Positions 3,369 to 42,804 of a stretch of DNA of 64,000 bases are shown here, piece after piece. This stretch comes from Bacillota bacterium (GTDB lineage: Bacteria > Bacillota > Clostridia > Christensenellales > Christensenellaceae): NCBI GenBank assembly GCA_023393165.1, contig JAEWMJ010000057.1:94500-158499 (forward strand), given 5' to 3'. The notes below the pieces were generated by a model, which made no database searches, had not been told where the DNA came from, and saw only the letters and a list, made by a program, of their open reading frames with translations. The position numbers and the translations under genes were made by a program. Positions within the stretch are counted from its first letter, which is position 1; the number at the start of each line of letters is the position of its first letter.

Positions 3369-4217
3369 TTAGTTATACTCGGTTCCTTCAACATAAGCGC
3401 TTAATTTCCCGTCTTTCAGGGTGTACCAGTCCTCCGAATCCGTGGCAAATCCGGCTCCAACGCCGTCGCCTTTCCCGAATATGGAAGCGGGCTCTGAAGA
3501 TCCGCTGCGGACAACGCCGATTGAACCCGCTGTGCCGTCCATATTGGTTACAACCTTTACGGTTTCGTACGTGCCGTCATCGTTTTGTATATAAACCTGG
3601 CCGGCATATCCGTCCTTGATCTTCGTATATTCCGAAAGCAGATAGAATTCACCGTTCTGCGTCAATGCAGAGCTCATCGATTGTAATCCCGCGTCATACT
3701 TTGATTCTATCTTTACGGTGCCGCCGTCCGCATCGGCGTACTCAACCGTATAGGTGTTTCCGTTATTCGAAATTTTAACGCCTTCCATTCCAAGCATTGC
3801 AAGCGCCGCGGCCGATCCGCTGCTGTCTTCCATGCCGCAAACCGTCAGAGGGATCAGCATGAGGTCGGCAAGAGATATTCCCAATATATCCATATTTGCG
3901 GTCATGGACATCTCCGCCAGTCCGGCGTCTTCGCCGAGCGCAGTGGACATGTTTGTAACCAGGTTGGATTTTGCTTCCGTATACTTTCCGTAGGATTCAT
4001 ACAGCGGCAGGCTTCCGCCCCCCGAAGTATCCGATACGGCGCTGTCCGCCGCTTCAGACGCTGTGCCGTCATCTTCCGGAATTTCCAAACTATCCCCATC
4101 TACCTGCATAGCGGATTTTACCGCGCTTTCCATTGCCTTGGGCAAGCCGCCCATACAGCCGGTGGCCGCAACAAGCAGCAACGAAAGGATAAGCGCGATG
4201 CATAGAATTTTTTTCAT
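3369..4217 (-). CDS. Lipoprotein of unknown function
   Basis: Signal peptide MKKILCIALILSLLLVAATGC with lipobox A-T-G-C, followed by a D/E/S-rich linker and a beta-rich body. Confidence 0.75.
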   Translation of the reverse strand: MKKILCIALILSLLLVAATGCMGGLPKAMESAVKSAMQVDGDSLEIPEDDGTASEAADSAVSDTSGGGSLPLYESYGKYTEAKSNLVTNMSTALGEDAGLAEMSMTANMDILGISLADLMLIPLTVCGMEDSSGSAAALAMLGMEGVKISNNGNTYTVEYADADGGTVKIESKYDAGLQSMSSALTQNGEFYLLSEYTKIKDGYAGQVYIQNDDGTYETVKVVTNMDGTAGSIGVVRSGSSEPASIFGKGDGVGAGFATDSEDWYTLKDGKLSAYVEGTEYN

Positions 4218-4247
4218 AAATTTACCTCCAAGCCATTATATAACTGT

Positions 4248-4727
4248 TTATTTATTGAGTTTGCCCGAGAATTTAGCGGCTAATTTACCGAAAACAGGCA
4301 TGGCATACTCTTCATATTTATAGGCCTTTACCATGGCAATGATTCCAAAAATCAGGAAAATAAGGCCGATAATGCCCATAATGATACTGGCGGCGGCTAC
4401 TCCCGCCCATGCGCCGAAATAGCTGTTCAGATCATAAGGATTCGATGCAATGGCTGCTGCCGTTGCGGCGCCTGCAATGCCGGCGATAATGTTGACAATG
4501 ACATCGATGATTGCGAAAATTAAGAAAAGCGCAAAAGCCTGAAGGGCGTGGAATTTTACGAGATTGCTGTTCTTTTCCAAATAGAAGAATATCAGCGGGA
4601 GCAACCATGAGACATATTGCACAAACGGTATAAAACTGAGAATGACGGCCGAGACATATGTCAACAACGCCATTACGTTTGCATCCATATTGCCTATTGA
4701 CGACTTGTGTGGTTCATAAATTTTCAT
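4248..4727 (-). CDS. Small multi-pass membrane protein, DUF4870-like
   Basis: At least three hydrophobic helices. The NVMALLTYVSAVIL and KFHALQAFALFLIF segments resemble my recollection of the DUF4870 family. Confidence 0.7.
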   Translation of the reverse strand: MKIYEPHKSSIGNMDANVMALLTYVSAVILSFIPFVQYVSWLLPLIFFYLEKNSNLVKFHALQAFALFLIFAIIDVIVNIIAGIAGAATAAAIASNPYDLNSYFGAWAGVAAASIIMGIIGLIFLIFGIIAMVKAYKYEEYAMPVFGKLAAKFSGKLNK

Positions 4728-5374: not shown

Positions 5375-6865
5375 ATGAAAAAAATTATTCATTTTTTATC
5401 CTTCCTCATTGTTTTGGTTTGCCTTTTTCCGTTTTTGTTTGGCTGCACTTCCGGTTTTGTATTCTCGCAGGATCAGCCCACCACCATTACCGTATGGCAT
5501 TTTTATACTTCGGGACTCAAAACGGCGTTCGAGGATATGATAAACGATTTCAACAATACGTACGGAAGTGAACACAATATCATTGTGGAGGCTGAAAACC
5601 AGGAGGACCTGGACACGCTGGCCGCAAGCATCATCGACTCCAGCAAAAAAAAGGTCGGGGCAGACAAACTCCCCAATATCATATTCGCATATACGGGTAC
5701 GGTCCTGGAACTTGACCGTCAGGACTTTGTCGCCAATCTGGACGACTATTTCACAAAGGACGAACTTTCCAGATACTATCCTTCTTTTCTGGAGGAAGGG
5801 AGAATCGGTGAAGAAAACAAACTGGAATGTTTCCCTGTAGCCAAATCCACCGAACTGCTTTTTATAAACAAAGCGGATTTCGACGAATTTGCAAAAAGCG
5901 CGAATGATTCCGGATTGTACGGAAAAGTATCTGCCGACGATTTTTCCACATTTGAAGGCATTGCAAATCTCTCGGATATATATTACAAATGGACGGATGC
6001 AAAAACACCTTCCGTCCAAAATGACGGAAAATCTTTTTTTGGAATGGACGCCACGCCGAATTTCATATCTGTCGGCCTGCGCCAGTTGGGAAACGTCCCG
6101 GTAACCGTATCCGGTGCAACGGGAACATTTTCTATGGATAAGGAAGCCGCTAGACGCCTCTGGGGTTTTTACTACAGCAATATTGTAACCGGAAGGTTTG
6201 CGGAAATCGGACGCTACCGGGCGGATGATATGAAAACGGGCGATCTGGTCGCCTATCTGGGTTCATCGGGAGGCGCAACCTATTTTCCCGAAGAAATAAT
6301 GCCCGGCAGTCCGGAGGCCCGGAAGACCGATCTGCTGGTATTGCCTTACCCTGTATTTCAGGGCGCGAAAGCAGTTTCCATTCAGCAGGGCGCCGGAATG
6401 TCCGTGATAAAAACGGATAAGCAGCATGAAGAAGCGTCGGCGCAGTTTATTAAATGGTTCACCGACCCTGCGCAGAATGTTAAATTCTCCTATATGTCCG
6501 GTTACCAGCCGGTCCAAAAAGCGGAATTTATCCGTGACGCGCAGGAAAAAGAAATTGCCGGGCTTAAAAACGCCACGGATACGGCGCTTCAAAATACGCT
6601 TGCGGCGCTTCAGACGGCGTCCCGCCAGTTTAACGATTACGAGCTGACGGTGGATAAGGAATTCACCGGCAGTTATGATGTGCGCAACATGTTCGGCATG
6701 ACCCTCTCCGAGGCCGCCAAAAACGCAAGAAGTTCTCTTTTGGTTGACCTTCAGGCAGGCAAGACGCTGGATGAGGCCCTGCCCGGCTACCTTGACTCAG
6801 CGAACTTTGAAAACTGGTACAATCAGATTCAAAAGGAATTCAGTAATCTGACGGCCGGCGAATAA
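5375..6865 (+). CDS. Extracellular solute-binding lipoprotein (ABC family-1 type sugar binder)
   Basis: Signal peptide with lipobox LFGC. Size of 496 aa and the sequence style (ITVWHFYT, KLPNIIFAY, FYYSN) are typical of family-1 SBPs. No cognate permease or ATPase genes are adjacent. Confidence 0.8.
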   Translation: MKKIIHFLSFLIVLVCLFPFLFGCTSGFVFSQDQPTTITVWHFYTSGLKTAFEDMINDFNNTYGSEHNIIVEAENQEDLDTLAASIIDSSKKKVGADKLPNIIFAYTGTVLELDRQDFVANLDDYFTKDELSRYYPSFLEEGRIGEENKLECFPVAKSTELLFINKADFDEFAKSANDSGLYGKVSADDFSTFEGIANLSDIYYKWTDAKTPSVQNDGKSFFGMDATPNFISVGLRQLGNVPVTVSGATGTFSMDKEAARRLWGFYYSNIVTGRFAEIGRYRADDMKTGDLVAYLGSSGGATYFPEEIMPGSPEARKTDLLVLPYPVFQGAKAVSIQQGAGMSVIKTDKQHEEASAQFIKWFTDPAQNVKFSYMSGYQPVQKAEFIRDAQEKEIAGLKNATDTALQNTLAALQTASRQFNDYELTVDKEFTGSYDVRNMFGMTLSEAAKNARSSLLVDLQAGKTLDEALPGYLDSANFENWYNQIQKEFSNLTAGE

Positions 6866-6869
6866 AACG

Positions 6870-9800
6870 ATGGAACTATTCGGCAGATTCAAACGGAACC
6901 CGGGGTCTCTTCGGAAAAAAATAATAGGACCGCAGATTATATTGCTCTTCATTCAGCTTGCCATTATTTTGTCCTGTATTTCGGGACTCGGACTGCTCCG
7001 AAACGCGCGGGACAATGAATTTGACAAGCTTGCCGCTTCCGTTCAAAGCCGCGCCCTTCAGGTGCAGAAATATTTCAATAACATTTCAATCAACGCCGGT
7101 TACGCATCCGACAAAATTCAGAACAGCATGCAGGATATTCTTTCAGAAAAGCGCCTTGAATCCGCAGATGAATTGCTGCAAAACCAGGGTCTTGTGGAAG
7201 CATTTGAGAAAGATTCCCTGCCCGCTCTGGTAAACGCTCTGGAATACTCTGAAACTTCCGGAGTTTTTATCGTACTCGATACAAACAACAACCCCGGCAC
7301 CAAGGCCGCGCTTTATCTGCGCGATACCCGGCCGGAAACCGTAAGCGCATCGGACTTGCTTTATGTGCGCGGACCTTATTCCATCGCAAGGGACCTGTCC
7401 ATCCCACTGGACAGCGATTGGAGCTTTGAGCAGAAATTTACCGGTTCGGAGAGCGATTATTATGTGAATCCCTGGAATGCAGCGCTGAATAAGAAAACCG
7501 ATATATCCGACCAATGCGGCTACTGGAGCGGCGCATATCAATTTTCAGAGACCGGACAGAGAATCATATCGTATACCCTTCCGCTTTTGGACCCAAACGG
7601 TAAACCTTTTGGCGTTTTCGGATTTGAAGTGAATGAAGATCTGCTGATAAAAAAACTGCCCTCGGACGAAATTCCATATCAAAACGGGTTTTACGCATTA
7701 TATAAAAGTGCTGATCCCGGCAGCCTGTCCGATAGTACGGTTTTCAGCGGAGCATACGCAAGCATTCTGAAGGGAGACCCGGTTTCCATCCGTCCGGCAG
7801 GTTACGGCACTCCCGCCCTCATACAACTTGCAGTGGACCGGGATCACCCGCCCATGCTAGGAATAAAAAACATACTGGAATTATACAGCCCGGGTTCCTG
7901 CTTTGCCGGCGATCAGTGGATACTGGCGGGTATCGTGCCGGAATCCCAGCTTTTATCGCTCTGGTACGGGATCATTCAGGTACTTGCGATCGCTTTTATT
8001 TTATCATTTGCCATCGGCCTGGCCGGTATATTCGGCTCAGGCTGGGCTTTTGCGCGTCCCATAGCCGCACTTGCCAAAAAGGTCCGGGCGGCCAATCCAA
8101 AAGAACCTATTGCACTCGGTAAAACAAACATCGTGGAAATTGACGATCTGACGGCGGCCCTGGAAAAAATGAGCAGCGACGTCGCGCAGGCGGCTTCCCG
8201 TATGTCCAAAATAATCGGTCTGGTGGGTTTGCCGCTTGGAGGGTATGAAGCGGATTTTCAGAACGGAATTGCTTATTTGACAGATTCCATGTTCGACCTT
8301 TTTGGGCTGCACAAGGAAAAATCCGGATCTAATACCCTGCCCCTGTCCGAATGGAAGGCCCTCCTGACGGGCATCTTAAACGACAAGGAAGAAGGGTTTG
8401 AGGACGTCTACCGCTATAATCCTTCGCCCAAGAATGTTCGCTGGCTGCGAATCAAAACGGCCGTCATTTCGCCGCAGATCGAACTCGGTATTGTTCTTGA
8501 CGTATCGGAAGAAGTCCTTCATCAGCGTCAAAATGAATTTGCAAGGGATTACGATTCGCTCACCGGCTTTATGAACCGGAAAGCGTTTTTAAACAAATGT
8601 ACCGAACTGATAGAGGCCGATCCGTCCGCCTCGGGTATTCTGCTTCTTGCCGATCTGTATTTCATCCGGAGCCTTCATGCGTCGGGCGAACTGGAAAACG
8701 AAACGCTTCTGCGTATCGCAGGACTTTTTGGAGAGTTCAGGCAATTCGGGGGCATATTGTCCCGTATTTCCGGCTATGAATTTGTGGTCTATATCCATGG
8801 CTGCGGCGATGCTCCGGGCATCATGGAATTTGCGCAGAAACAGTTCGGTTCCCCGCTTGCAATCAGGCGGATGGATGGGCAGATCCAGGAGTTTTTCTTT
8901 TCAATAGGCGCATGCCGTTATCCCGAGGACGCCAGAAATGTGGAAGACCTCATTTATTTCGCAGATTTTGCCCAAAACGAAGCCCAACGCCAGCCCCGGA
9001 AAGGTATCGTACCCTTCCAGATGGAAAACTATAACCAAAACAATATTATGGCGCAAAAAAACAACGCGTTTTATGAAATATTGTCTTTAAGGCAGCTTAA
9101 TATCAATTTAATTCCTATTATGGACGTCAATACGGGAAATATCATGGGTTACGACGCTCTTGTGGACTACCGCAACAGCTTTATAAAAAAAGCGGAGGAC
9201 ATGATTGCAATGGCGCGCATCCACAACCGCCTTTTTGAACTCGAGCGGCTTACGATGATCAGCATACTCGAGTATATCCGTGAAAACTATCATGAACTGA
9301 ACGGCGCAAAAGTTTTCTTTTCTTCCCTTACGAACGAGGTCATACCGCAGAGCGAAATTCAAAAGGTAGACAAAATTTACGGGGCCCTTTACTCCTCCAT
9401 CGTATTTAATCTGACCGATACCGAACACTGCGATAAACAGATATTCATAGATAAGAACAGAGAACTTAAAAAACGCGGTGTTGCAATTGCGATTGACCGG
9501 TACGGTACGGTCAATGCCAGCGAACTGCTGCTTCTAGATTTAAAACCGGGTTACCTGCGCATGGATCCTTCCATCATACAGGACGTGAACCTGGATCCCA
9601 ACAGGCATCAGCTTCTCCAGGCGCTCCTCTCCTACACCACCACCCGTGGGATCAGGACAATGGCCGTGGGCATAAGAACCAGGGAAGAACTCGAAACCGT
9701 TATCAAAATGGGCATCGATTATGTACAGGGCCCCTATCTTTGCGAACCCATGTCCGGGATCATTTTGCCGGAGAGTACCGCCGCACAGAATATCCGTATA

Positions 9801-10256
9801 AAAATCAAGGATGTTGAAAACTATAAATTCACACTTTCCGACGGTGACGAGCGGTACGCGCGTCTGCTAAAACTATTGCCGGCAGGTTCGCAGCTGACCG
9901 AACGCGAAAAAATGATTCTGCATCAGATTTGCATGGGAGAACTGAACAATGTGATCTCATCCGACCTCGGCATATCCGTCAACACTTTGAAAACGCATAT
10001 CCGCAACATTTACAGTAAATGCGGCGTAAAGAACAGAAAAGAACTGCTGATGTTGTCAGAATCCGGTGAAAGCCCGGACAGCGAACTCACCCTCAGGGAA
10101 AAAGAGATCCTTCGTTTGATCATTCTGGGCAAAACGAATCAGGAAATCACATCAGCGCTTTGCATCAGCAACAATACGGTACGCGTGCACATCTGGAACA
10201 TCTGCACCAAACTGGGCGTAAAAAACCGGAACGACCTGATGGAGATACGGCTATAA
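6870..10256 (+). CDS. Membrane sensor: TM-Cache-like-TM-linker-PAS-like-degenerate GGDEF-degenerate EAL-2x LuxR HTH
   Basis: TM helices at aa ~20-43 and ~362-394. Periplasmic segment with the Cache-like motif ISYTLPLLDPNGKPFGVFGFEV. The domains below were identified by motif. The start lies 4 nt after the SBP stop. Confidence 0.85.
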   Translation: MELFGRFKRNPGSLRKKIIGPQIILLFIQLAIILSCISGLGLLRNARDNEFDKLAASVQSRALQVQKYFNNISINAGYASDKIQNSMQDILSEKRLESADELLQNQGLVEAFEKDSLPALVNALEYSETSGVFIVLDTNNNPGTKAALYLRDTRPETVSASDLLYVRGPYSIARDLSIPLDSDWSFEQKFTGSESDYYVNPWNAALNKKTDISDQCGYWSGAYQFSETGQRIISYTLPLLDPNGKPFGVFGFEVNEDLLIKKLPSDEIPYQNGFYALYKSADPGSLSDSTVFSGAYASILKGDPVSIRPAGYGTPALIQLAVDRDHPPMLGIKNILELYSPGSCFAGDQWILAGIVPESQLLSLWYGIIQVLAIAFILSFAIGLAGIFGSGWAFARPIAALAKKVRAANPKEPIALGKTNIVEIDDLTAALEKMSSDVAQAASRMSKIIGLVGLPLGGYEADFQNGIAYLTDSMFDLFGLHKEKSGSNTLPLSEWKALLTGILNDKEEGFEDVYRYNPSPKNVRWLRIKTAVISPQIELGIVLDVSEEVLHQRQNEFARDYDSLTGFMNRKAFLNKCTELIEADPSASGILLLADLYFIRSLHASGELENETLLRIAGLFGEFRQFGGILSRISGYEFVVYIHGCGDAPGIMEFAQKQFGSPLAIRRMDGQIQEFFFSIGACRYPEDARNVEDLIYFADFAQNEAQRQPRKGIVPFQMENYNQNNIMAQKNNAFYEILSLRQLNINLIPIMDVNTGNIMGYDALVDYRNSFIKKAEDMIAMARIHNRLFELERLTMISILEYIRENYHELNGAKVFFSSLTNEVIPQSEIQKVDKIYGALYSSIVFNLTDTEHCDKQIFIDKNRELKKRGVAIAIDRYGTVNASELLLLDLKPGYLRMDPSIIQDVNLDPNRHQLLQALLSYTTTRGIRTMAVGIRTREELETVIKMGIDYVQGPYLCEPMSGIILPESTAAQNIRIKIKDVENYKFTLSDGDERYARLLKLLPAGSQLTEREKMILHQICMGELNNVISSDLGISVNTLKTHIRNIYSKCGVKNRKELLMLSESGESPDSELTLREKEILRLIILGKTNQEITSALCISNNTVRVHIWNICTKLGVKNRNDLMEIRL
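8532..9014 (+). other. GGDEF-like domain, degenerate
   Basis: DSLTGFMNRKAF entry motif. The signature is SGYEF (nt 8769-8783) instead of GG(D/E)EF. The metal and GTP-contacting ND..GH..GD block is replaced by LHASGELENETL. Confidence 0.75.
9051..9755 (+). other. EAL-like domain, degenerate
   Basis: YDALVDY (nt 9150-9170) replaces EAL. IDRYG replaces DDFG. RMD replaces K.D. AVGIR replaces AEGVE. The terminal YVQG is retained. Confidence 0.75.
9882..10055 (+). other. LuxR/FixJ-type HTH domain 1
   Basis: LTEREKMILHQICMGELNNVISSDLGISVNTLKTHIRNIYSKCGVKNRKELL. Confidence 0.85.
10077..10247 (+). other. LuxR/FixJ-type HTH domain 2
   Basis: LTLREKEILRLIILGKTNQEITSALCISNNTVRVHIWNICTKLGVKNRNDL. Confidence 0.85.
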
Positions 10257-37247: not shown

Positions 37248-39271
37248 TTATCTCTTCTCTTCCAGCAATTTTTTGAATTTTTCCGCGCCGAATGCGGGCG
37301 GCAGGCAGGTCTGCCCCCTGCACACATACGCCGTGGGTCTTTCGTCCTGCATCTTGTATCCGGAAAAATAATCCCGCAAATTTTCTGGAATTTTTTCATC
37401 CGCCGCTATCACAACAACGTCCGCGTCCCTCCCCCTGGCAAGTTCAATCATCCCCTGCAATTCTTCCTTTGTTTTACCAACGAGAACTATTTTTATTTTC
37501 TCCCGGCTGTCCTCCAGCATCGCGTGCATCATATGGGCATACGCGCCCGGACTCCGGGATATATCATCCGCAAATGCGCGGAATATATCCACAGCGCGTT
37601 CCCTCATTTCAAGATCCCCCGTCAGACCGGACAAGCGCAATAAATTTCCAGCCTCAACGGAATTTGCCGAAGGCGTCGCTCCATCGTAAACCGTTTTGGT
37701 GCGGGCGATCAGCATCTCGGAACTCGTACCCGAATAAAACAGGCCGCCGGTTTCATTGTCCCAAAAATCTTCCATAAATACTTCGTTCATCCGCACCGCG
37801 GCTGAGAGTACGTCCGCGTCAAACGCAGCGGCATACAGTTCAAGCAATCCCCATATGAGATACGCCCAGTCGTCCGCATGCGCGGGATTTTTCGCCTGTC
37901 CTTCGCGGTAAGAGGATTTCAAAGCTTTTCCTTCCATCAGCTTATTCTGGACGAACTGCCAGCATTCGGCTGCGGTCTGGATAAAACTGTAATTCTTTAA
38001 TACTCTTCCGGCAAACGCGAAGGCCGCCATGGCCAGTCCGTTCCAGCAAGTAAGGATTTTGTCGTCCAGAAACGGATGGACCCGTTTTTCACGGGCGTCA
38101 AACAATATTTTTCGCTCTTTTTCAAAATCCGGCATTTCTTCCAGGCCTAGCGGATTGCCTATCAGATTGGGGATGTTTTTACCTTCAAAATTACCCCCAT
38201 CCGTTATATCGAAATTGCCGCAAAAATTCTCCGCAGCATCTCCCAGAAGTTCGCCTGCTTCGGACCGGTCCCAAAGGTAAAACTTGCCTTCCACGCCCTC
38301 CGAATCCGCGTCCTCCGCGGTATAAAACCCGCCTTCGGGTGAGCGCATCATCCGCTCCAGATACGAAAGGGTGCTTTGGGCGGTATTCTTGAGGCTCTCT
38401 CTGCCCGTCCGGGCATAGGCCCCGGTATAGGTGTATGCCAGCAATGCGTTGTCGTACAGCATTTTTTCAAAATGCGGAACCAGCCATCTTTGGTCGGTAG
38501 AGTAGCGGCAGAAACCGTACCCGATATGGTCGTGGATGCCGCCCCTGTCCATGGCGTCCAGCGTCTTGAGCGCCATTTGAAGCGCCTGCGGCTTATCGTG
38601 CGCCTCCGCGTATTCCATCAGAAACAGCAGCAGATGCGGAGAAGGGAACTTGGGCGCATAGGAAAATCCGCCGTAATTTGTGTCAAAACTTCTCTTCAGT
38701 TCCCCGTATGCGACATGCGGCAGGTTTCTGTCCTCGTCTTTCTTTTGAGCAGTCCTGCTGTTCAGATATTTTAATACCTCCTGCGAAGCTTCTTCCAGCT
38801 TGCCCCGGTCCGAATCCCAGATTTTACGAATCTGTAAAATGAGGCTTTGAAACTGCGCGTTTGTAAAATAAGTTCCGGTAAAAAAAGGGCGCCGCTCCGC
38901 ATCCATGAATATGGAAAGCGGCCATCCGCCGCTGCCCGTCATGGCCTGGCATACGTCCATATACACATGGTCCACATCCGGGCGTTCCTCCCGGTCCACC
39001 TTGATGCTCACAAAATTGTCGTTCAGCATCCGTGCCGCCGCCTCGTCCTCGAACGTTTCACGTTCCATCACGTGGCACCAATGACAAGTGCGTCATAGTA
39101 GACAAGTCAGCTATACCCAATAGATAGGAAAACAGGCTTATCCTCAAGCCTTGCTTTCTCAAACGCTTCTTCTCCCCATGGGAACCAGTCCACCGGATTA
39201 TACGCATGCTGCAACAGATAAGGAGATTTCTCATTGATTAATCTATTGGGTATTTTCTTTTGATTGTCCAC
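37248..39271 (-). pseudogene. yyaL: YyaL-like thioredoxin-domain (DUF255) / six-hairpin glycosidase-like protein, interrupted by a 20-nt insertion
   Basis: The 5' piece (39107..39271/39289) ends ...[10 protein letters not shown] then TGA. The 3' piece (37248..39071) starts at VMERETFEDE. The expected TCHWCH active-site codons (39072-39089) lie between them in the 3' frame, behind a stop. The frames differ by 2 nt. Confidence 0.8.
39090..39109. other. 20-nt extra segment / candidate recombination junction inside yyaL
   Basis: The + strand reads atGACAAGTgcgtcatagtaGACAAGTcagctata. A 7-nt direct repeat GACAAGT sits at 39083-39089 and 39101-39107. By hand count, GC is 68/120 on the host side (38941-39060) and 78/183 on the other side (39107-39289). 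Confidence 0.6.
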
Positions 39272-39330
39272 TTGACCACCCCCTTTCAAAAAACAGAGAT
39301 TATAATATTCTAATAATTTTTTTGATCATC

Positions 39331-40845
39331 CTATTTGAAATTGATCTTTATTCTAATATCGTCTCCGTTCTTATACCATATTATACTATCCAGAATAGTA
39401 CGATACAGATCATTTCGAGCTGCATTATCCGTAGTAATAGTAATGTTTTCAAAAAAATCGGATAATGATTTTAATCTCTCCGTATTGGATAGTGGCTGAT
39501 CATTATCGGATAGTTTTTTTAGCGTATAAATTTCATCTGAAATGTTATTTATTTCAAGCTCTCTCTTCCTTTTTCTCTCAAGCCATTCTTCGCGACAATA
39601 ATCACCCATTTCATATGCATCATTTACTAAAGTCAAAGCCTTTTTTTGCTTGGATAAAAGAAGCTCTTTTTCTTTTATGAGGACTTCCAGCATATTTAAA
39701 TCGTTATCTTCTTGTTCAACAATAGTCAGAAAACTATCTTTATACTTCGCAATTTCGGCAAAAACCTTTTCTTCTATAACGGATACAACAATACCTTCAT
39801 TATGACATTTTGTACCGTAGGGATCAATATACCAGCACGGTTTCATATGATACTTATTATCTCTAAAGTAAAAAGTATGGGTATGACCGCATCTACCACA
39901 CTTGATTAAACCAGAAAACATAAAAGTTTGGTGGCGCGCTTTTGTCGCTATCTGCTTCCTATCATTTATAAATTGAATAATCTTGTCATGCTCTTCCTGA
40001 GTTTTTACAGCTTCATGGCAATTTTTAACTACTACCCATTCGCTTCTGGGTAAAACTTTATAATCTTTTGCATTGGGCCGTTTATTTTTATGAGCATCTC
40101 CTTGAGTCTTGTTGCTTATTATTTTTCCAAGATGCGTTTCGTCGAATAAAAGTCTTTGGATTGAAAATCCGTTCCAGTATTTAGATTTAACTGTTAATAT
40201 GCCTTTTTGATTAAGACTATTCGCAATTTTTTGTGGGGGTACCCCTTGCAGAGCTTGATTAATCATACTCCTATAAACCTTGTATCTCTCATCATGAACA
40301 ACAAGTCCTTTAGGATTGAACTTATCTTTATATTGTTGATAGACATAAGGAAATGGTGGGATACCATTTGTCCATTGACCGCGCCTAGAACCGATTTTCT
40401 TGCCCTGTCGCAACCTCTTAGTTATCATTTTATATTCCTGACGTGCAAAAAAGCCCTTTAAATCTGCATAAGTATCATCAATATCATCATTGAGATCATA
40501 GATTTTATCGGGCGTTATTATGAGAGTATTTGACCTTTGAAACGCCTTTTTTATTCGATCTTGTTCTCCAAGGTCACCTCTCCCCAACCTGTCATATTCT
40601 ACAACGCATACTGCATCATATACCCCTTCTTCGACTTCCTTTAATAGTTTACTGATTTGGGGACGCATATCTATACTATCGGAAGTACCCACTTCCATAT
40701 ATTCTACGTATTTGAAATTGTTTTTTTGACAAAGGTCAATAAGAACTATTCGATGCTTTTCTAAATCTTCCATGCTTTCCGCACGGGATTTTCTGATGTA
40801 GATCGCAACATAACGGATAATGTATTTTTTGTTTTCAATATCCAA
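39331..40845 (-). CDS. Large serine recombinase
   Basis: Resolvase catalytic N-terminus YVAIYIRKSRAES and EYDRLGRG, a recombinase domain, a zinc ribbon CGRCGHTHTF...C..C, and a C-terminal coiled coil. TTG start 8 nt after GGGAGG. Confidence 0.9.
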   Translation of the reverse strand: MDIENKKYIIRYVAIYIRKSRAESMEDLEKHRIVLIDLCQKNNFKYVEYMEVGTSDSIDMRPQISKLLKEVEEGVYDAVCVVEYDRLGRGDLGEQDRIKKAFQRSNTLIITPDKIYDLNDDIDDTYADLKGFFARQEYKMITKRLRQGKKIGSRRGQWTNGIPPFPYVYQQYKDKFNPKGLVVHDERYKVYRSMINQALQGVPPQKIANSLNQKGILTVKSKYWNGFSIQRLLFDETHLGKIISNKTQGDAHKNKRPNAKDYKVLPRSEWVVVKNCHEAVKTQEEHDKIIQFINDRKQIATKARHQTFMFSGLIKCGRCGHTHTFYFRDNKYHMKPCWYIDPYGTKCHNEGIVVSVIEEKVFAEIAKYKDSFLTIVEQEDNDLNMLEVLIKEKELLLSKQKKALTLVNDAYEMGDYCREEWLERKRKRELEINNISDEIYTLKKLSDNDQPLSNTERLKSLSDFFENITITTDNAARNDLYRTILDSIIWYKNGDDIRIKINFK

Positions 40846-40924
40846 TATGCCCGCCTCCCAATAATATATCTAGGATTATTATGAGTTTTAAGACAGATAG
40901 AGTCAAAGGTGCCAATTAGATCTC

Positions 40925-41083
40925 CTATGGTATAACCACTTTTTTATCTTGGACTTGAAAAACTATTTTATCTGATTTGCTACTTCCATGAAGACGGCAT
41001 AACATTTTCTGAAAATTCTTTAAGGCTTCGTTTGATGGTGTGTTTGAAATAACAACTATTTTTAATTTGATGTTTTCACACAT
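40925..41083 (-). CDS. Small hypothetical protein (52 aa), possibly TnpW/orf5-like accessory protein
   Basis: I prefer the start at ATG 41083, preceded by AGGAGGAAAACTT. Its position directly upstream of the recombinase supports an accessory role. The family assignment is only a guess. Confidence 0.4.
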   Translation of the reverse strand: MCENIKLKIVVISNTPSNEALKNFQKMLCRLHGSSKSDKIVFQVQDKKVVIP

Positions 41084-41117
41084 AAGTTTTCCTCCTATCC
41101 GATTAATGTTATAGAGG

Positions 41118-41178
41118 AAATAGGAAATACCCATGTTTTAAGAAGATATGACTTATAGGTGTACCGTATTTCCTATTT
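41118..41178. promoter_or_regulatory. Perfect 13-bp inverted repeat with 35-nt spacer
   Basis: aaataggaaatac (41118-41130) pairs with gtatttcctattt (41166-41178), immediately upstream of the small ORF's RBS. Confidence 0.35.
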
Positions 41179-41331
41179 TAAAAAAGGTATAAAAATGGGC
41201 CAGAATCTATATTTTAAGCCAGTTTTTTGTATCAAGCTATTTATTTAAACATTTATATCTTATGACTAATCTGTAATGAATTTGTTTTCGATATAAAGTG
41301 TAAATGCATGACAATTCAACTTTATCATTAG

Positions 41332-41579
41332 GATACCGGACAACAGCGGGCCGCTGCCTCATAGGAATCACACCTCCCCCCATTCTGATGGCGGGCCGTC
41401 CCTTGACATCATGTTAGCCAGACGGAAGTATCATTATCCGGTTCGTGAGATCATCGCCTGCAGGCTTGCCACAGCCTGCCTGAGGCACAATATTTGTCGC
41501 TCTCCCCATTACTGGAGGTCCTGGCGTATCTGCCGCATAGCTTGTCCTTTCGGCTCACGCACCGAAGGTATCCGGTATC
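41332..41579 (-). ncRNA. Candidate structured non-coding RNA or cis element (~250 nt, GC-rich island in AT-rich DNA)
   Basis: Stops occur in all minus-strand frames. Closing 8-bp helix 41332-41339/41572-41579. An 11-bp bulged hairpin 41456-41486. Hairpin 41376-41395. Long-range 6-bp helix 41444-41449/41554-41559. 5-bp hairpin 41344-41356. Strand was chosen from flanking gene orientation and a GAAA loop, and is not secure. Confidence 0.4.
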
Positions 41580-41649
41580 ATATATTGAATTTTCAAAGTC
41601 CAGAAGTATGATCTACTGATCATAAACAAAGTATTAAAAGGATTTTGAT

Positions 41650-41892
41650 TTAAAATATTTTGAAACTTATTATTTTTGTTATTAACTTCGTCTGCAGTTG
41701 TCGCCGCATTTCTTCGTCTACAAAGTTATAGGTATTGCCTGATTCATCAAAAAGTTTTTTAATCGATAGTTTTAATATATAGCTATCATAATGGTCAACA
41801 ATTTTATTAATTGCAGCTACGTTACCTTTTACCGCTAACAAAATTGTTGGAAATGGAATCCTTTGGATTTTCTTCTGAGCAGTACTGTTCAC
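41650..41892 (-). CDS. Tn916 Orf8-like helix-turn-helix protein
   Basis: AAINKIVDHYDSYILKLS...FVDEEMRRQLQTKLITKII resembles my recollection of Tn916 Orf8 (…YEPYIAKLS…FVDETIRRRLETKLITKIL). Confidence 0.7.
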   Translation of the reverse strand: MNSTAQKKIQRIPFPTILLAVKGNVAAINKIVDHYDSYILKLSIKKLFDESGNTYNFVDEEMRRQLQTKLITKIISFKIF

Positions 41893-42229
41893 TGTTAGCC
41901 TCCAGATACTTTTTAAGTAATTTTAGCGCACTAGACCTCATATAGCTTACAGTCCAATGAACGAGATGAAGAAAACTGGATATTTCTTTGTCTGTCATGT
42001 TCAGCCAATAACTTAATATAACGATATCCCGTTTTATATCAGGTAGAGTATTGATAGCCTCGAGCAAAGTCTCGTTTTCTATTTCAAATACAAAACCAGC
42101 GGCAGCCAACTGGCCTCCTAGATTATATTTATCGATTGAATATAGTTGATTCATTTCATTTGGTGTCAGTTCACTAAATGCTTTTTCATGCTCGAGTAAA
42201 TATGATTCATGTTGCCGAATATCTTTCAT
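41822..42229 (-). CDS. Tn916 Orf7-like sigma-70 region-4 protein (N-terminus probably extends to ~42307-42313)
   Basis: LLEAINTLPDIKRDIVILSYWLNMTDKEISSFLHLVHWTVSYMRSSALKLLKKYLE is a sigma region-4 HTH. The frame is open upstream to a TGA at 42314-42316. Confidence 0.75.
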   Translation of the reverse strand: MKDIRQHESYLLEHEKAFSELTPNEMNQLYSIDKYNLGGQLAAAGFVFEIENETLLEAINTLPDIKRDIVILSYWLNMTDKEISSFLHLVHWTVSYMRSSALKLLKKYLEANSEQYCSEENPKDSISNNFVSGKR

Positions 42230-42397
42230 TTCATTGGCGACTACAAGCTTACAAAAATAGTCAAACTGTTTTTCAACCCTTTGTTTATTGGATAAAGAAA
42301 TTTCTATTAAAATTCACCTCCTCCTTAATTTTTAGAAAAGACTAATTTTTAGTTATTAATAGAACGAATCGAAATGTATAATTTTGTAATAATTTAG

Positions 42398-42428
42398 AAA
42401 AAAACAAAAAAAACCGCTTATTGCGGTT
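42398..42428 (-). terminator. Rho-independent terminator
   Basis: Minus-strand stem aaccgc-aataa-gcggtt followed by TTTTTTTTGTTTTTTT. Confidence 0.6.
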
Positions 42429-42480
42429 AAAAGAATTTATAAATCCATTTTTAAAATAGCTCTTAGATTTTTTTAGCTTG

Positions 42481-42660
42481 CTAGATAATATGTCTGGTCT
42501 TTTCATAGTCCATGTTGAGTAAAACAGAAATCTGCTTTAAGTTTCTGTTTTTAAAAATATTTATATATAAAGCTTGTTGAATAGAGGGACCAGGGTGCTT
42601 AAGTAATCATTTACTGTTTTTTTTATTTCCATTCAGCTTTGATGTCTCATAAACCGGCTT
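42481..42660 (-). pseudogene. Remnant of an XRE-type HTH gene (no start, internal stop)
   Basis: The frame reads KPVYETSKLNGNKKNSK*LLKHPGPSIQQALYINIFKNRNLKQISVLLNMDYEKTRHII*. It resembles the C-terminal half of Cro/CI-type HTH proteins such as Tn916 Orf9, which contains ...[21 protein letters not shown]. Confidence 0.3.
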
Positions 42661-42804
42661 TCACCCTGGACTTAGGGGTTCTTTTAAATATGGTTTCATT
42701 TCCTCTGAGGTTCGGAAAACAACTTTCTCAGCATGAGCCATTCATTTCGTATACAAGTGAGATCACTTACAAGGATTACAACCAAGCGTAAAATAACTGC
42801 ATAA

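Follow-up and report, generated by a model that had tools for sequence, protein, structure and literature searches.

A GC-rich island in a Christensenellaceae mobile module is a divergent member of the RNA family that includes Tn916 canT

Introduction

What is a GC-rich, non-coding island doing inside a low-GC mobile module? The question is raised by a 64,000-nt stretch of DNA from a Christensenellaceae bacterium (Bacillota; assembly GCA_023393165.1, contig JAEWMJ010000057.1, positions 94,500 to 158,499 of the forward strand), which we call the window and number from its first letter. The island lies between an orf8-like gene and a gene for a large serine recombinase. An earlier note, written from the sequence alone, proposed that it may be either a multi-branched RNA or a DNA transfer or recombination site of the mobile module.

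We find that the RNA encoded by the island is a new and divergent addition to a family already known, to which canT of Tn916 also belongs. canT, the region between orf8 and xis, is a cis-acting, orientation-specific and processive antiterminator, most likely an RNA, that requires no other gene of the element (Wirachman & Grossman 2024, PMC11658703). The island probably specifies the folded core of a processive antiterminator RNA of the canT type, an activity that we infer for the window copy from its homology with Tn916 canT. An unexplained GC island can thus be annotated as a regulatory RNA of a mobile-element remnant or mini-element, and the RNA family concerned controls transfer-gene expression in elements that spread tetracycline and vancomycin resistance.

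Results

The pemK motif is the 3′ part of a larger RNA

The island contains a match to the pemK RNA motif (Rfam accession RF02913; window 41359-41437, minus strand, 59.4 bits, E 2.3e-9). The match spans positions 1-61 of the 61-position model and exceeds the gathering score of 34.8, the curated threshold for membership. pemK is the single Rfam family above threshold in the whole 64-kb window. The earlier note, which suggested a search with Rfam covariance models, had itself matched the island to no RNA family. The features that mark pemK are an unpaired 5′ segment AUAAUGAUACUUC and three hairpins, the last of them GGUGAAAUUCC-like, and all are found in the window, where the alignment reads AUAAUGAUACUUCCG, then hairpin P6, CCCGCCAUCAGAAUGGGGGG and AGGUGUGAUUCCU (helix names refer to the larger RNA described below). 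The dinG RNA motif (Rfam accession RF03082) overlaps pemK as a weak match (24.3 bits) below its gathering score of 46.9; compared through this sub-threshold match only, dinG has in common with the window a 5′ consensus AAUGAUACUUCC with hairpins after it. The pemK motif comes from the screen of Weinberg et al. (2017, PMC5737381), and we found no function for it in the searchable literature.

In six of nine further orf8-bearing plasmid loci, pemK follows orf8 on the same strand at a distance of 185-305 nt. A seventh locus (L006) has a diverged pemK copy, and at the remaining two this place is broken by erm(C) or has a different sequence. Alignment of the regions downstream of orf8 revealed conserved blocks far upstream of the Rfam pemK model. 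A pattern made from these blocks identifies at least 119 sites in species-representative genomes, with hosts that include Clostridia of many families, Streptococcus, Enterococcus, Peptoniphilus, Paenibacillus and others.

We represented this RNA with a covariance model, R1 (271 positions, 81 pairs). A MAFFT-only alignment of all 111 sequences and an anchor-segmented alignment both gave poor consensus structures; R1 was reached by clustering, seeding from one cluster (13 unrelated Tn1549-like sequences) and then building the covariance model. A scan with R1 yielded 97 matches in 100 sources. The only match in the 64-kb window is at 41327-41582 on the minus strand (92.2 bits, E 1.6e-28, positions 1-271 of 271), and Tn916 is matched at 3851-4119, likewise over the full length of the model (125.4 bits). 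Since R1 covers the window island end to end as well as Tn916 canT, the 61 positions of the Rfam model are only the 3′ part, about a third, of a larger RNA. All 10 Rfam pemK matches examined fall in the 3′ part of an R1 match. The 12 loci fetched by a pemK-only pattern all have the whole RNA (11 full length, 1 cut by a contig end), and all 22 pemK sites examined (10 Rfam matches, 12 pattern-fetched) carry the extra 5′ domain and the closing helix. No relative is more than ~60% identical to the window copy, and a blastn search with the island DNA against plasmid and phage collections returned no match.

Covariation supports about ten helices on the minus strand

The canT-type RNA has a covariation-supported architecture of about ten helices, and a look for covariation among homologues, as the earlier note had suggested, showed two-sided changes across the family. 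In an alignment of 97 sequences (93 distinct), 90.5% of cells hold standard pairs, compared with 64.1% in shuffles and 36-40% with slid partners. Two-sided changes occur at 64 of the 81 pairs, and the covariation score is 0.551 (shuffles, 0.156; slid partners, ~0.06). None of 500 shuffles reached the observed pairing or covariation values. At many pairs, four to six pair types are well represented; a pair in P1, for instance, is GC in 38 sequences, AU in 36, CG in 6 and UA in 3. RNAalifold gives the same helices on MAFFT-only alignments, prior to any model. The termini pair in the sequence's own minimum-energy fold in 73 of 79 non-seed sequences, as against 25 of 79 shuffles.

All 10 pairs of P1 (helices 1-2 of the model) show two-sided changes, with 88.6% and 96.3% of cells paired. 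P2 (helices 3-4), whose 3′ strand extends into the AAUG of the conserved AUAAUGAUAC, has two-sided changes at 9 of 9 pairs of helix 4. The corresponding counts are 6 of 6 pairs for P5 (helix 11; 96.7% of cells paired) and 5 of 5 for P9 (helix 18). In the window copy, 64 of the 70 model pairs with both positions present are canonical.

The alignment also identifies the strand, which the earlier note had left unassigned. G-U/U-G pairs number 554 and A-C/C-A mismatches 180 (~3:1), and this excess indicates that the folded strand is the one sense to orf7 and orf8, the minus strand of the window.

We also noted an assembly break inside the element. In the Logan assembly of run SRR13243524, the contig with tpiA and orf7 ends, and the contig with the recombinase begins, within P6 (41405-41414; L134, L004). 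The two contigs overlap by ~10 nt there and the assembly graph breaks, which could reflect strain heterogeneity or a repeat.

Loss-of-function mutations of Tn916 canT map to pemK

Our Tn916 reference is the Tn916/Tn925 element on pCF10 (L001), in which the orf8 stop is at 3710; published coordinates were counted from there. pemK lies at 3993-4093 of this element (plus strand, which is the sense strand; 55 bits), inside the 452-nt canT fragment (3836-4287). The loss-of-function deletion canT(Δ162) corresponds to 3939-4100 and removes the entire pemK motif. In terms of the R1 structure, the deleted stretch runs from the 3′ strand of P3 to the 5′ strand of P9, both included, and leaves only the 3′ strands of P9 and P1 downstream. 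The substitution canT(S3), likewise a loss-of-function allele, is ATA to TGC at orf8 stop +283; it falls at 3993-3995 and alters the three nucleotides with which the pemK consensus AUAAUGAUACUUC opens. Read antisense, the S3 site is an in-frame Tyr codon of "orf5", in agreement with the published description (PMC11658703). The nucleotides mutated in S3 are kept in the window (AUA, 41437-41435). The pemK motif is thus coincident with the part of canT that mutations define.

Experiments in Tn916 established what this region does. canT needs no element protein to act on heterologous terminators or on three terminators placed in series; it is active in a chromosomal amyE reporter, where its effect depends on orientation relative to the promoter; and in Tn916, once the element has excised, it enables transcription from Porf7 to pass terminators and reach the conjugation genes (PMC11658703). 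Single-sequence folding gave its discoverers no convincing structure, and their paper does not mention Rfam, pemK, boxA or NusB (PMC11658703). In the searchable literature we found no report of the link between pemK and canT, of the extended structure or of the boxA-like box described below.

A boxA-like box precedes the structured core

Most family members carry a short conserved box just upstream of the core, with the family consensus uGwwCyUUGAmAAyU(rAAUA). At least 10 of 15 matches to the Tn916 box TGTTCTTTGAAAACT are found at this place in 93 of 116 unique members, compared with 9 of 116 shuffles. Eight positions are near-invariant (G2, C5, U7-A10, A12-A13). The extended box is TGTTCTTTGAAAACTGAATA in Tn916 and TGGACTTTGAAAATTCAATA in the window (41602-41583).

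The core motif of the box is also found in rrn operons of C. difficile, Listeria and Priestia, with exactly two copies in each: the 16S leader has one and the 16S-23S spacer the other. We take these sites, from established knowledge of rrn operons, to be the classical boxA antitermination positions. The 18-mer GTTCTTTGAAAACTGAAT presumably has the 16S-23S spacer as its primer target. It serves as a nested-PCR primer for mycoplasma detection (PMC3019172). As judged from sequence, the boxA-like box suggests recruitment of Nus factors.

Within the 64-kb window the core motif occurs at two sites only, the box upstream of the RNA and 6798-6823 on the plus strand; the chance expectation is ~0.5 matches per window. 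The second site (motif G..CYTTGAMAA) reads CAGCGAACTTTGAAAACTGGTACAAT and lies ~60 nt upstream of a 1128-aa open reading frame (ORF; 6870-10256).

Composition and extent of the island

The region 41327-41582 on the minus strand is confirmed as a genuine GC-rich, multi-helix, non-coding element. GC content is ~0.505-0.52 over window positions 41300-41599 and 0.26-0.37 in the flanking DNA, so that the GC-rich island reported between the orf8-like gene and the recombinase gene is real. The base pairing listed in the earlier note was likewise found in place. It comprised a closing helix (gataccgg, 41332-39, with ccggtatc, 41572-79), a long-range pair (cgtgag, 41444-49, with ctcacg, 41554-59) and three hairpins (41456-86, 41376-95 and 41344-56); these correspond to the family helices P1, P2, P5, P7 and P9, all of which covary. 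The note's broader proposal, that the mobile module includes a multi-branched structured RNA, is supported by the Rfam match, the full-length R1 match and the covariation.

Other details needed correction. The direct repeat gcgggccg does occur twice, but its first copy starts at 41346 and not at 41347. Of its two copies, one is part of hairpin P9 and the other falls where P6 and P7 meet, and the repeat appears incidental. The ORF at 41411..41611, described as the only one on the plus strand, is accompanied by a second (41494-41619, 41 aa). The R1 boundaries exceed the 41332-41579 of the note by 5 nt and 3 nt. The functional unit probably starts ~20 nt further upstream, in the AT-rich flank, at the boxA-like box (41588-41602).

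Single-sequence folding energy is unexceptional on either strand (z = -1.26 on the plus strand and -1.60 on the minus strand), and the case for structure therefore rests on comparative evidence.

The plus-strand ORF at 41411-41611 and orf5 of the Tn916 reference (L001, 3936-4187, minus strand) both encode YHY antisense to the invariant AUAAUGAUA but show no other relationship. Where elements of this kind have an annotated "orf5-like" gene, it is probably a by-product of the RNA.

Genes and elements associated with the RNA family

Neighbouring genes were counted with small home-made hidden Markov models, which makes the following counts lower bounds. Among the 86 R1 matches with enough upstream sequence, an orf7-like gene lies upstream on the same strand in 53 and an orf8-like gene in 37. 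Downstream, the 60 matches with enough sequence include 25 with a tyrosine integrase gene, often after xis, and 13 with a serine recombinase gene. The order found in the window (orf7, orf8, RNA, serine recombinase) also occurs in L007, a tet(M) element, and in L077, L078 and L097.

Some loci contain two RNA copies within a few kb: L011 (1343-1560, minus strand, and 3405-3622, plus strand), L013, L014, L039 and L077. In the E. faecalis loci the two copies have opposite orientations, in L014 they are ~580 nt apart, and in L077 there is one per orf7-orf8 module. This arrangement suggests adjacent or nested elements. We also identified 12 IMG/VR 'viral' contigs (L147-L158) that bear the full canT-type RNA; these contigs may be misfiled integrative elements, or they may come from phage-like elements with the same antiterminator. 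In two tet(M)-carrying Tn916-like elements, orf7 has upstream of it a different Rfam family, SQ2397 (Rfam accession RF03532, 'cis-regulator of HTH transcription factor'; L007, 2062-2297, 171 bits; L010, 2021-2277, 108 bits). The window module has no counterpart of it.

The window module and its flanks

The RNA belongs to a low-GC module of ~3.4 kb (~39300-42700, ends defined only by the drop in GC), which is set between host genes of 0.45-0.57 GC and has all its genes on the minus strand (Table 1). Pfam searches with five ORFs of the module and island identified Sigma70_r4/Sigma70_r4_2, HTH_16 and Resolvase/Recombinase/Zn-ribbon domains, together with a weak, sub-threshold match to DUF3010. 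The right flank contains the host genes tpiA and rpiB and a sugar-kinase/ABC-transporter operon (sugar catabolism), and the left flank contains host genes for thioredoxin-like and PadR proteins.

Table 1. Features of the RNA and of the surrounding module (window coordinates)
Feature	Position	Strand	Remarks
Large serine recombinase, 504 aa	39331..40845	-	Resolvase, Recombinase and Zn-ribbon domains
Small ORF, 69 aa (52 aa in public assemblies)	40925..41134	-	Between RNA and recombinase
Structured RNA core, canT-type, ~10 helices (P1-P9 plus P2′)	41327..41582	-	Full-length R1 match
P1, 3′ strand	41328..41341	-	Pairs with 41570-41581
P9 hairpin	41342..41358	-	5-bp hairpin of the earlier note
Rfam pemK motif (RF02913)	41359..41437	-	Single-stranded AUAAUGAUACUUC (41437-41425), then hairpins P6, P7, P8
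Single-stranded AUAAUGAUAC	41437-41428	-	Part of the pemK domain
P5 hairpin	41460..41479	-	Core of the 7+4-bp hairpin of the earlier note
P3-P4 long hairpin	41483..41535	-	Invariant blocks CGCCAnGAC and GAGCGA (helices 7-10)
P2	41556..41568 / 41432-41447	-	Contains the cgtgag/ctcacg pair
P1, 5′ strand, closing helix	41570..41581	-	Pairs with 41328-41341; 8-bp closing helix of the earlier note
boxA-like box TGGACTTTGAAAATT	41588..41602	-	~20 nt upstream of the structured core
orf8-like HTH_16 protein	41650..41892	-	PF12645, 3.1e-24; ~50% identity to Tn916-family Orf8; directly upstream of the RNA
orf7-like sigma-70 region-4 protein	41822..42229	-	PF08281, 7.8e-6; 36-41% identity to orf7 of other elements
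Intrinsic-terminator-like hairpin and T tract	42403..42428	-	Between host tpiA and orf7

A word-indexed protein search with the orf8-like ORF returned no match because this ORF is not called in public assemblies. The closest relative of the recombinase (43% identity) is in L097, where it is likewise downstream of a family RNA. We considered the small 69-aa ORF as a conserved excisionase-like gene and rejected it: the ORF has no Pfam family and no homologue in ~150 related loci, and it is possibly not a gene.

The orf7-like frame remains open for ~30 codons upstream of its first ATG (42229-42330) and encodes a conserved N-terminal FDYFCK motif (KQFDYFCKLVVANE). This upstream stretch contains no ATG, GTG or TTG, and a strong ribosome-binding site (RBS; AAGGAGGAGG) is located at ~42326-42317. 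The orf7 start could be non-canonical (ATA/ATT) or decayed.

The strong terminator-like hairpin upstream of orf7 would be downstream of the RNA only in an excised circle. Speculatively, the hairpin at 42428-42403 might be a host operon terminator or a T1-like insulator that is met after going round the excised circle.

Four public contigs carry an identical module in identical context. In a search for the empty site, the exact TpiA and recombinase proteins occurred only in this same context, and a metagenome scan recovered only relatives of at most 41% identity.

Downstream of the recombinase, the thioredoxin-like gene (Thioredox_DsbH/YyaL-type) is broken at window 39083-39112 (minus strand). 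A 20-nt insertion, TGACTTGTCTACTATGACGC (39109-39090), flanked by a 7-nt direct repeat ACTTGTC, separates ...IGYS from TCHWCHVME... and introduces a stop and a frameshift. Public assemblies call this gene as two ORFs (54 and 593 aa).

Discussion

Proposed mechanism

By homology with Tn916 canT, we suggest the following course of events. orf7, orf8, the RNA and the recombinase gene would be transcribed from the minus strand as one transcript, in which the boxA-like box (41588-41602) would be followed by the ~255-nt RNA (41582-41327). The closing helix P1 would enclose a 5′ domain (P2, P2′, P3-P4 and P5) and the Rfam pemK domain (single-stranded AUAAUGAUAC, P6-P8 and P9). The nascent RNA would remain on the polymerase that made it and hence act in cis, and the boxA-like box would recruit host NusB/S10 as in rRNA operons, probably for long-range processivity. 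For the window copy, we infer both the binding of RNA polymerase and the involvement of Nus factors. A polymerase so modified would resist intrinsic terminators and thereby express the genes downstream of the RNA. In the window these are the small ORF and the gene for the serine recombinase; in a complete element they would be the conjugation genes, which lie across the joint of the excised circle.

We tentatively extend this proposal to the family, in a form that is possible but falls short of probable. In it, pemK would be the 3′ domain of a ~215-370-nt, boxA-preceded RNA that is the general canT of the Tn916/Tn1549/Tn5397 superfamily in well over 100 Bacillota species. This RNA would hijack the Nus machinery, with boxA bound by NusB-S10 and a fold that holds RNA polymerase, and in the window would serve recombinase expression or host read-through.

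Evidence that weighs against antitermination by the window copy

Several points count against this reading. Antitermination activity was shown for Tn916 only, and its presence in the window copy is an argument from homology. The window copy is imperfect, with 6 of 70 present pairs mismatched and with shorter P4 and P6. Covariation was counted on an alignment fitted to the model, a procedure that favours the model; we take the signal to be real because of the diversity of pair types, the recovery of the helices by RNAalifold before any model and the terminal pairing in non-seed sequences. Published fragments of Tn916 add further reservations. In a 400-bp fragment, S3 made little difference; a 291-nt fragment that includes the Δ162 region, and whose own ends the paper text does not state, was inactive (PMC11658703). 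Together these results leave the sufficiency of the 269-nt core unproven. The box occupies 3830-3844, and the active 452-nt fragment, with its first nucleotide at 3836, lacks 6 nt of it. In that short-range reporter a complete boxA can therefore be dispensed with, and the box may matter, on analogy with boxA in lambda N antitermination, for long-range processivity. Finally, the ~3.4-kb module and its flanks contain no conjugation genes, and a consensus scan of the RNA's strand found no terminator-like site from the RNA to the recombinase. The target of antitermination is consequently not obvious, and a relic is possible.

Alternative explanations

The window RNA may then be a true canT homologue that is dead, within a module that is the decayed right end of a Tn5397-like conjugative element. 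This would fit the host genes on both flanks in place of conjugation genes, the orf7-like frame without a canonical start upstream of its conserved N-terminal motif, the failure to detect a downstream terminator, and the restriction of the module to one genomic context in 4 contigs. A neutral remnant would be expected to lose pairing, whereas this RNA is intact over all 271 model positions with 64 of 70 pairs canonical, the boxA-like box is kept, and the orf8 and 504-aa recombinase ORFs are intact with full domain sets. We regard a dead relic as unlikely, and the intact pairing argues for recent or current selection. An RNA that is alive might still be a cis-regulatory leader, either a riboswitch or a protein-binding RNA, that controls only the next gene and has no part in processive antitermination. 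Rfam types RF02913 as Cis-reg, the RNA is always upstream of recombination genes on the same strand, and a large conserved multi-helix fold with invariant single-stranded blocks is what ligand- or protein-binding RNAs have. A leader of this kind does not account for the Tn916 homologue, which works on heterologous terminators and on three serial ones without an element protein (PMC11658703). Nor does the window contain, after the RNA, a terminator/anti-terminator alternative or an RBS-sequestering platform, and the boxA-like box points to modification of the elongation complex. We consider a leader function improbable by a wide measure.

Further from canT are explanations that need no RNA. Folded single-stranded DNA (ssDNA) could serve in transfer or replication as a single-strand origin, an oriT-like site or a recombination accessory site. 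The family's association with mobile elements fits this idea, comparative analysis cannot separate ssDNA from RNA structures according to the discoverers of the motif (PMC5737381), and strand-specific covariation is also expected of an ssDNA site. Yet canT works in cis and in one orientation from a chromosomal amyE reporter, where there is no transfer or rolling-circle stage, and in Tn916 the known sites are elsewhere: sso916 is downstream of orf19 and oriT is 41 nt downstream of orf21, while the homologue of the window RNA is between orf8 and xis (PMC9154091, PMC11658703). Family members occur with tyrosine as well as serine recombinases and are internal to elements, not at their ends. The reporter data, the two recombinase types and the G-U excess leave the DNA site that the earlier note had offered as an alternative without support, and we judge it very improbable. 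A protein-coding origin, as a GC-rich gene fragment or as the 66-aa plus-strand ORF (41411-41611) that covers part of the island, has a negligible chance of being correct. Tn916 does have an annotated antisense orf5 at the same place, but the window ORF has no Pfam match, it and Tn916 Orf5 are dissimilar although the underlying RNA is homologous, and the substitutions are compensatory for base pairing and not codon-like. Moreover, Tn916 with mutated orf5 start and stop codons conjugates normally (PMC11658703). The fragment of a coding gene that the earlier note had named as a possible refutation is therefore not borne out.

Comparison with known antitermination systems

The canT-type reading places the window RNA among cis-acting nascent RNAs that make polymerase resistant to terminators. 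Others are put of phage HK022, EAR of the B. subtilis eps operon and conAn2 with ConAn1 of pLS20. The conAn system serves a Gram-positive conjugation operon, as canT does. None of put, EAR and conAn2 has sequence or structure similarity to the canT-type RNA, and put consists of two small hairpins where the canT-type RNA has about ten helices. We tried pLS20 conAn2 as a relative and rejected it, since conAn2 has no pemK match and no R1 match and pLS20 has no boxA-like box; conAn2 is a functional analogue only. ConAn1 (Pfam accession PF17362) is also not among the Pfam families of the five module and island ORFs scanned.

In rrn-operon and lambda nut systems, boxA is bound by NusB-S10 and is accompanied by hairpins. 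The RNA family described here resembles them in having the consensus of Firmicute rrn boxA positions ~20 nt upstream of a structured RNA in most members, and Tn916 canT resembles them in its outcome, processive cis-acting antitermination. The canT-type RNA differs from these systems in that its structured part is far larger than boxB/boxC and no N-like protein is involved.

The nearest characterized system is Tn916 canT. The window RNA is at most ~55-60% identical to it, has a shorter P4 and P6, and carries an 11-nt insertion after the 5′ strand of P2. The window module, in which no conjugation genes or downstream terminators were identified, has a serine recombinase, as in Tn5397, in place of the xis/int of Tn916, the one element in which antitermination has been shown. 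canT and the window RNA nonetheless share their place after orf7-orf8 and before the recombination genes, their strand and the Rfam pemK motif, and both are full-length matches of one covariance model (125 versus 92 bits).

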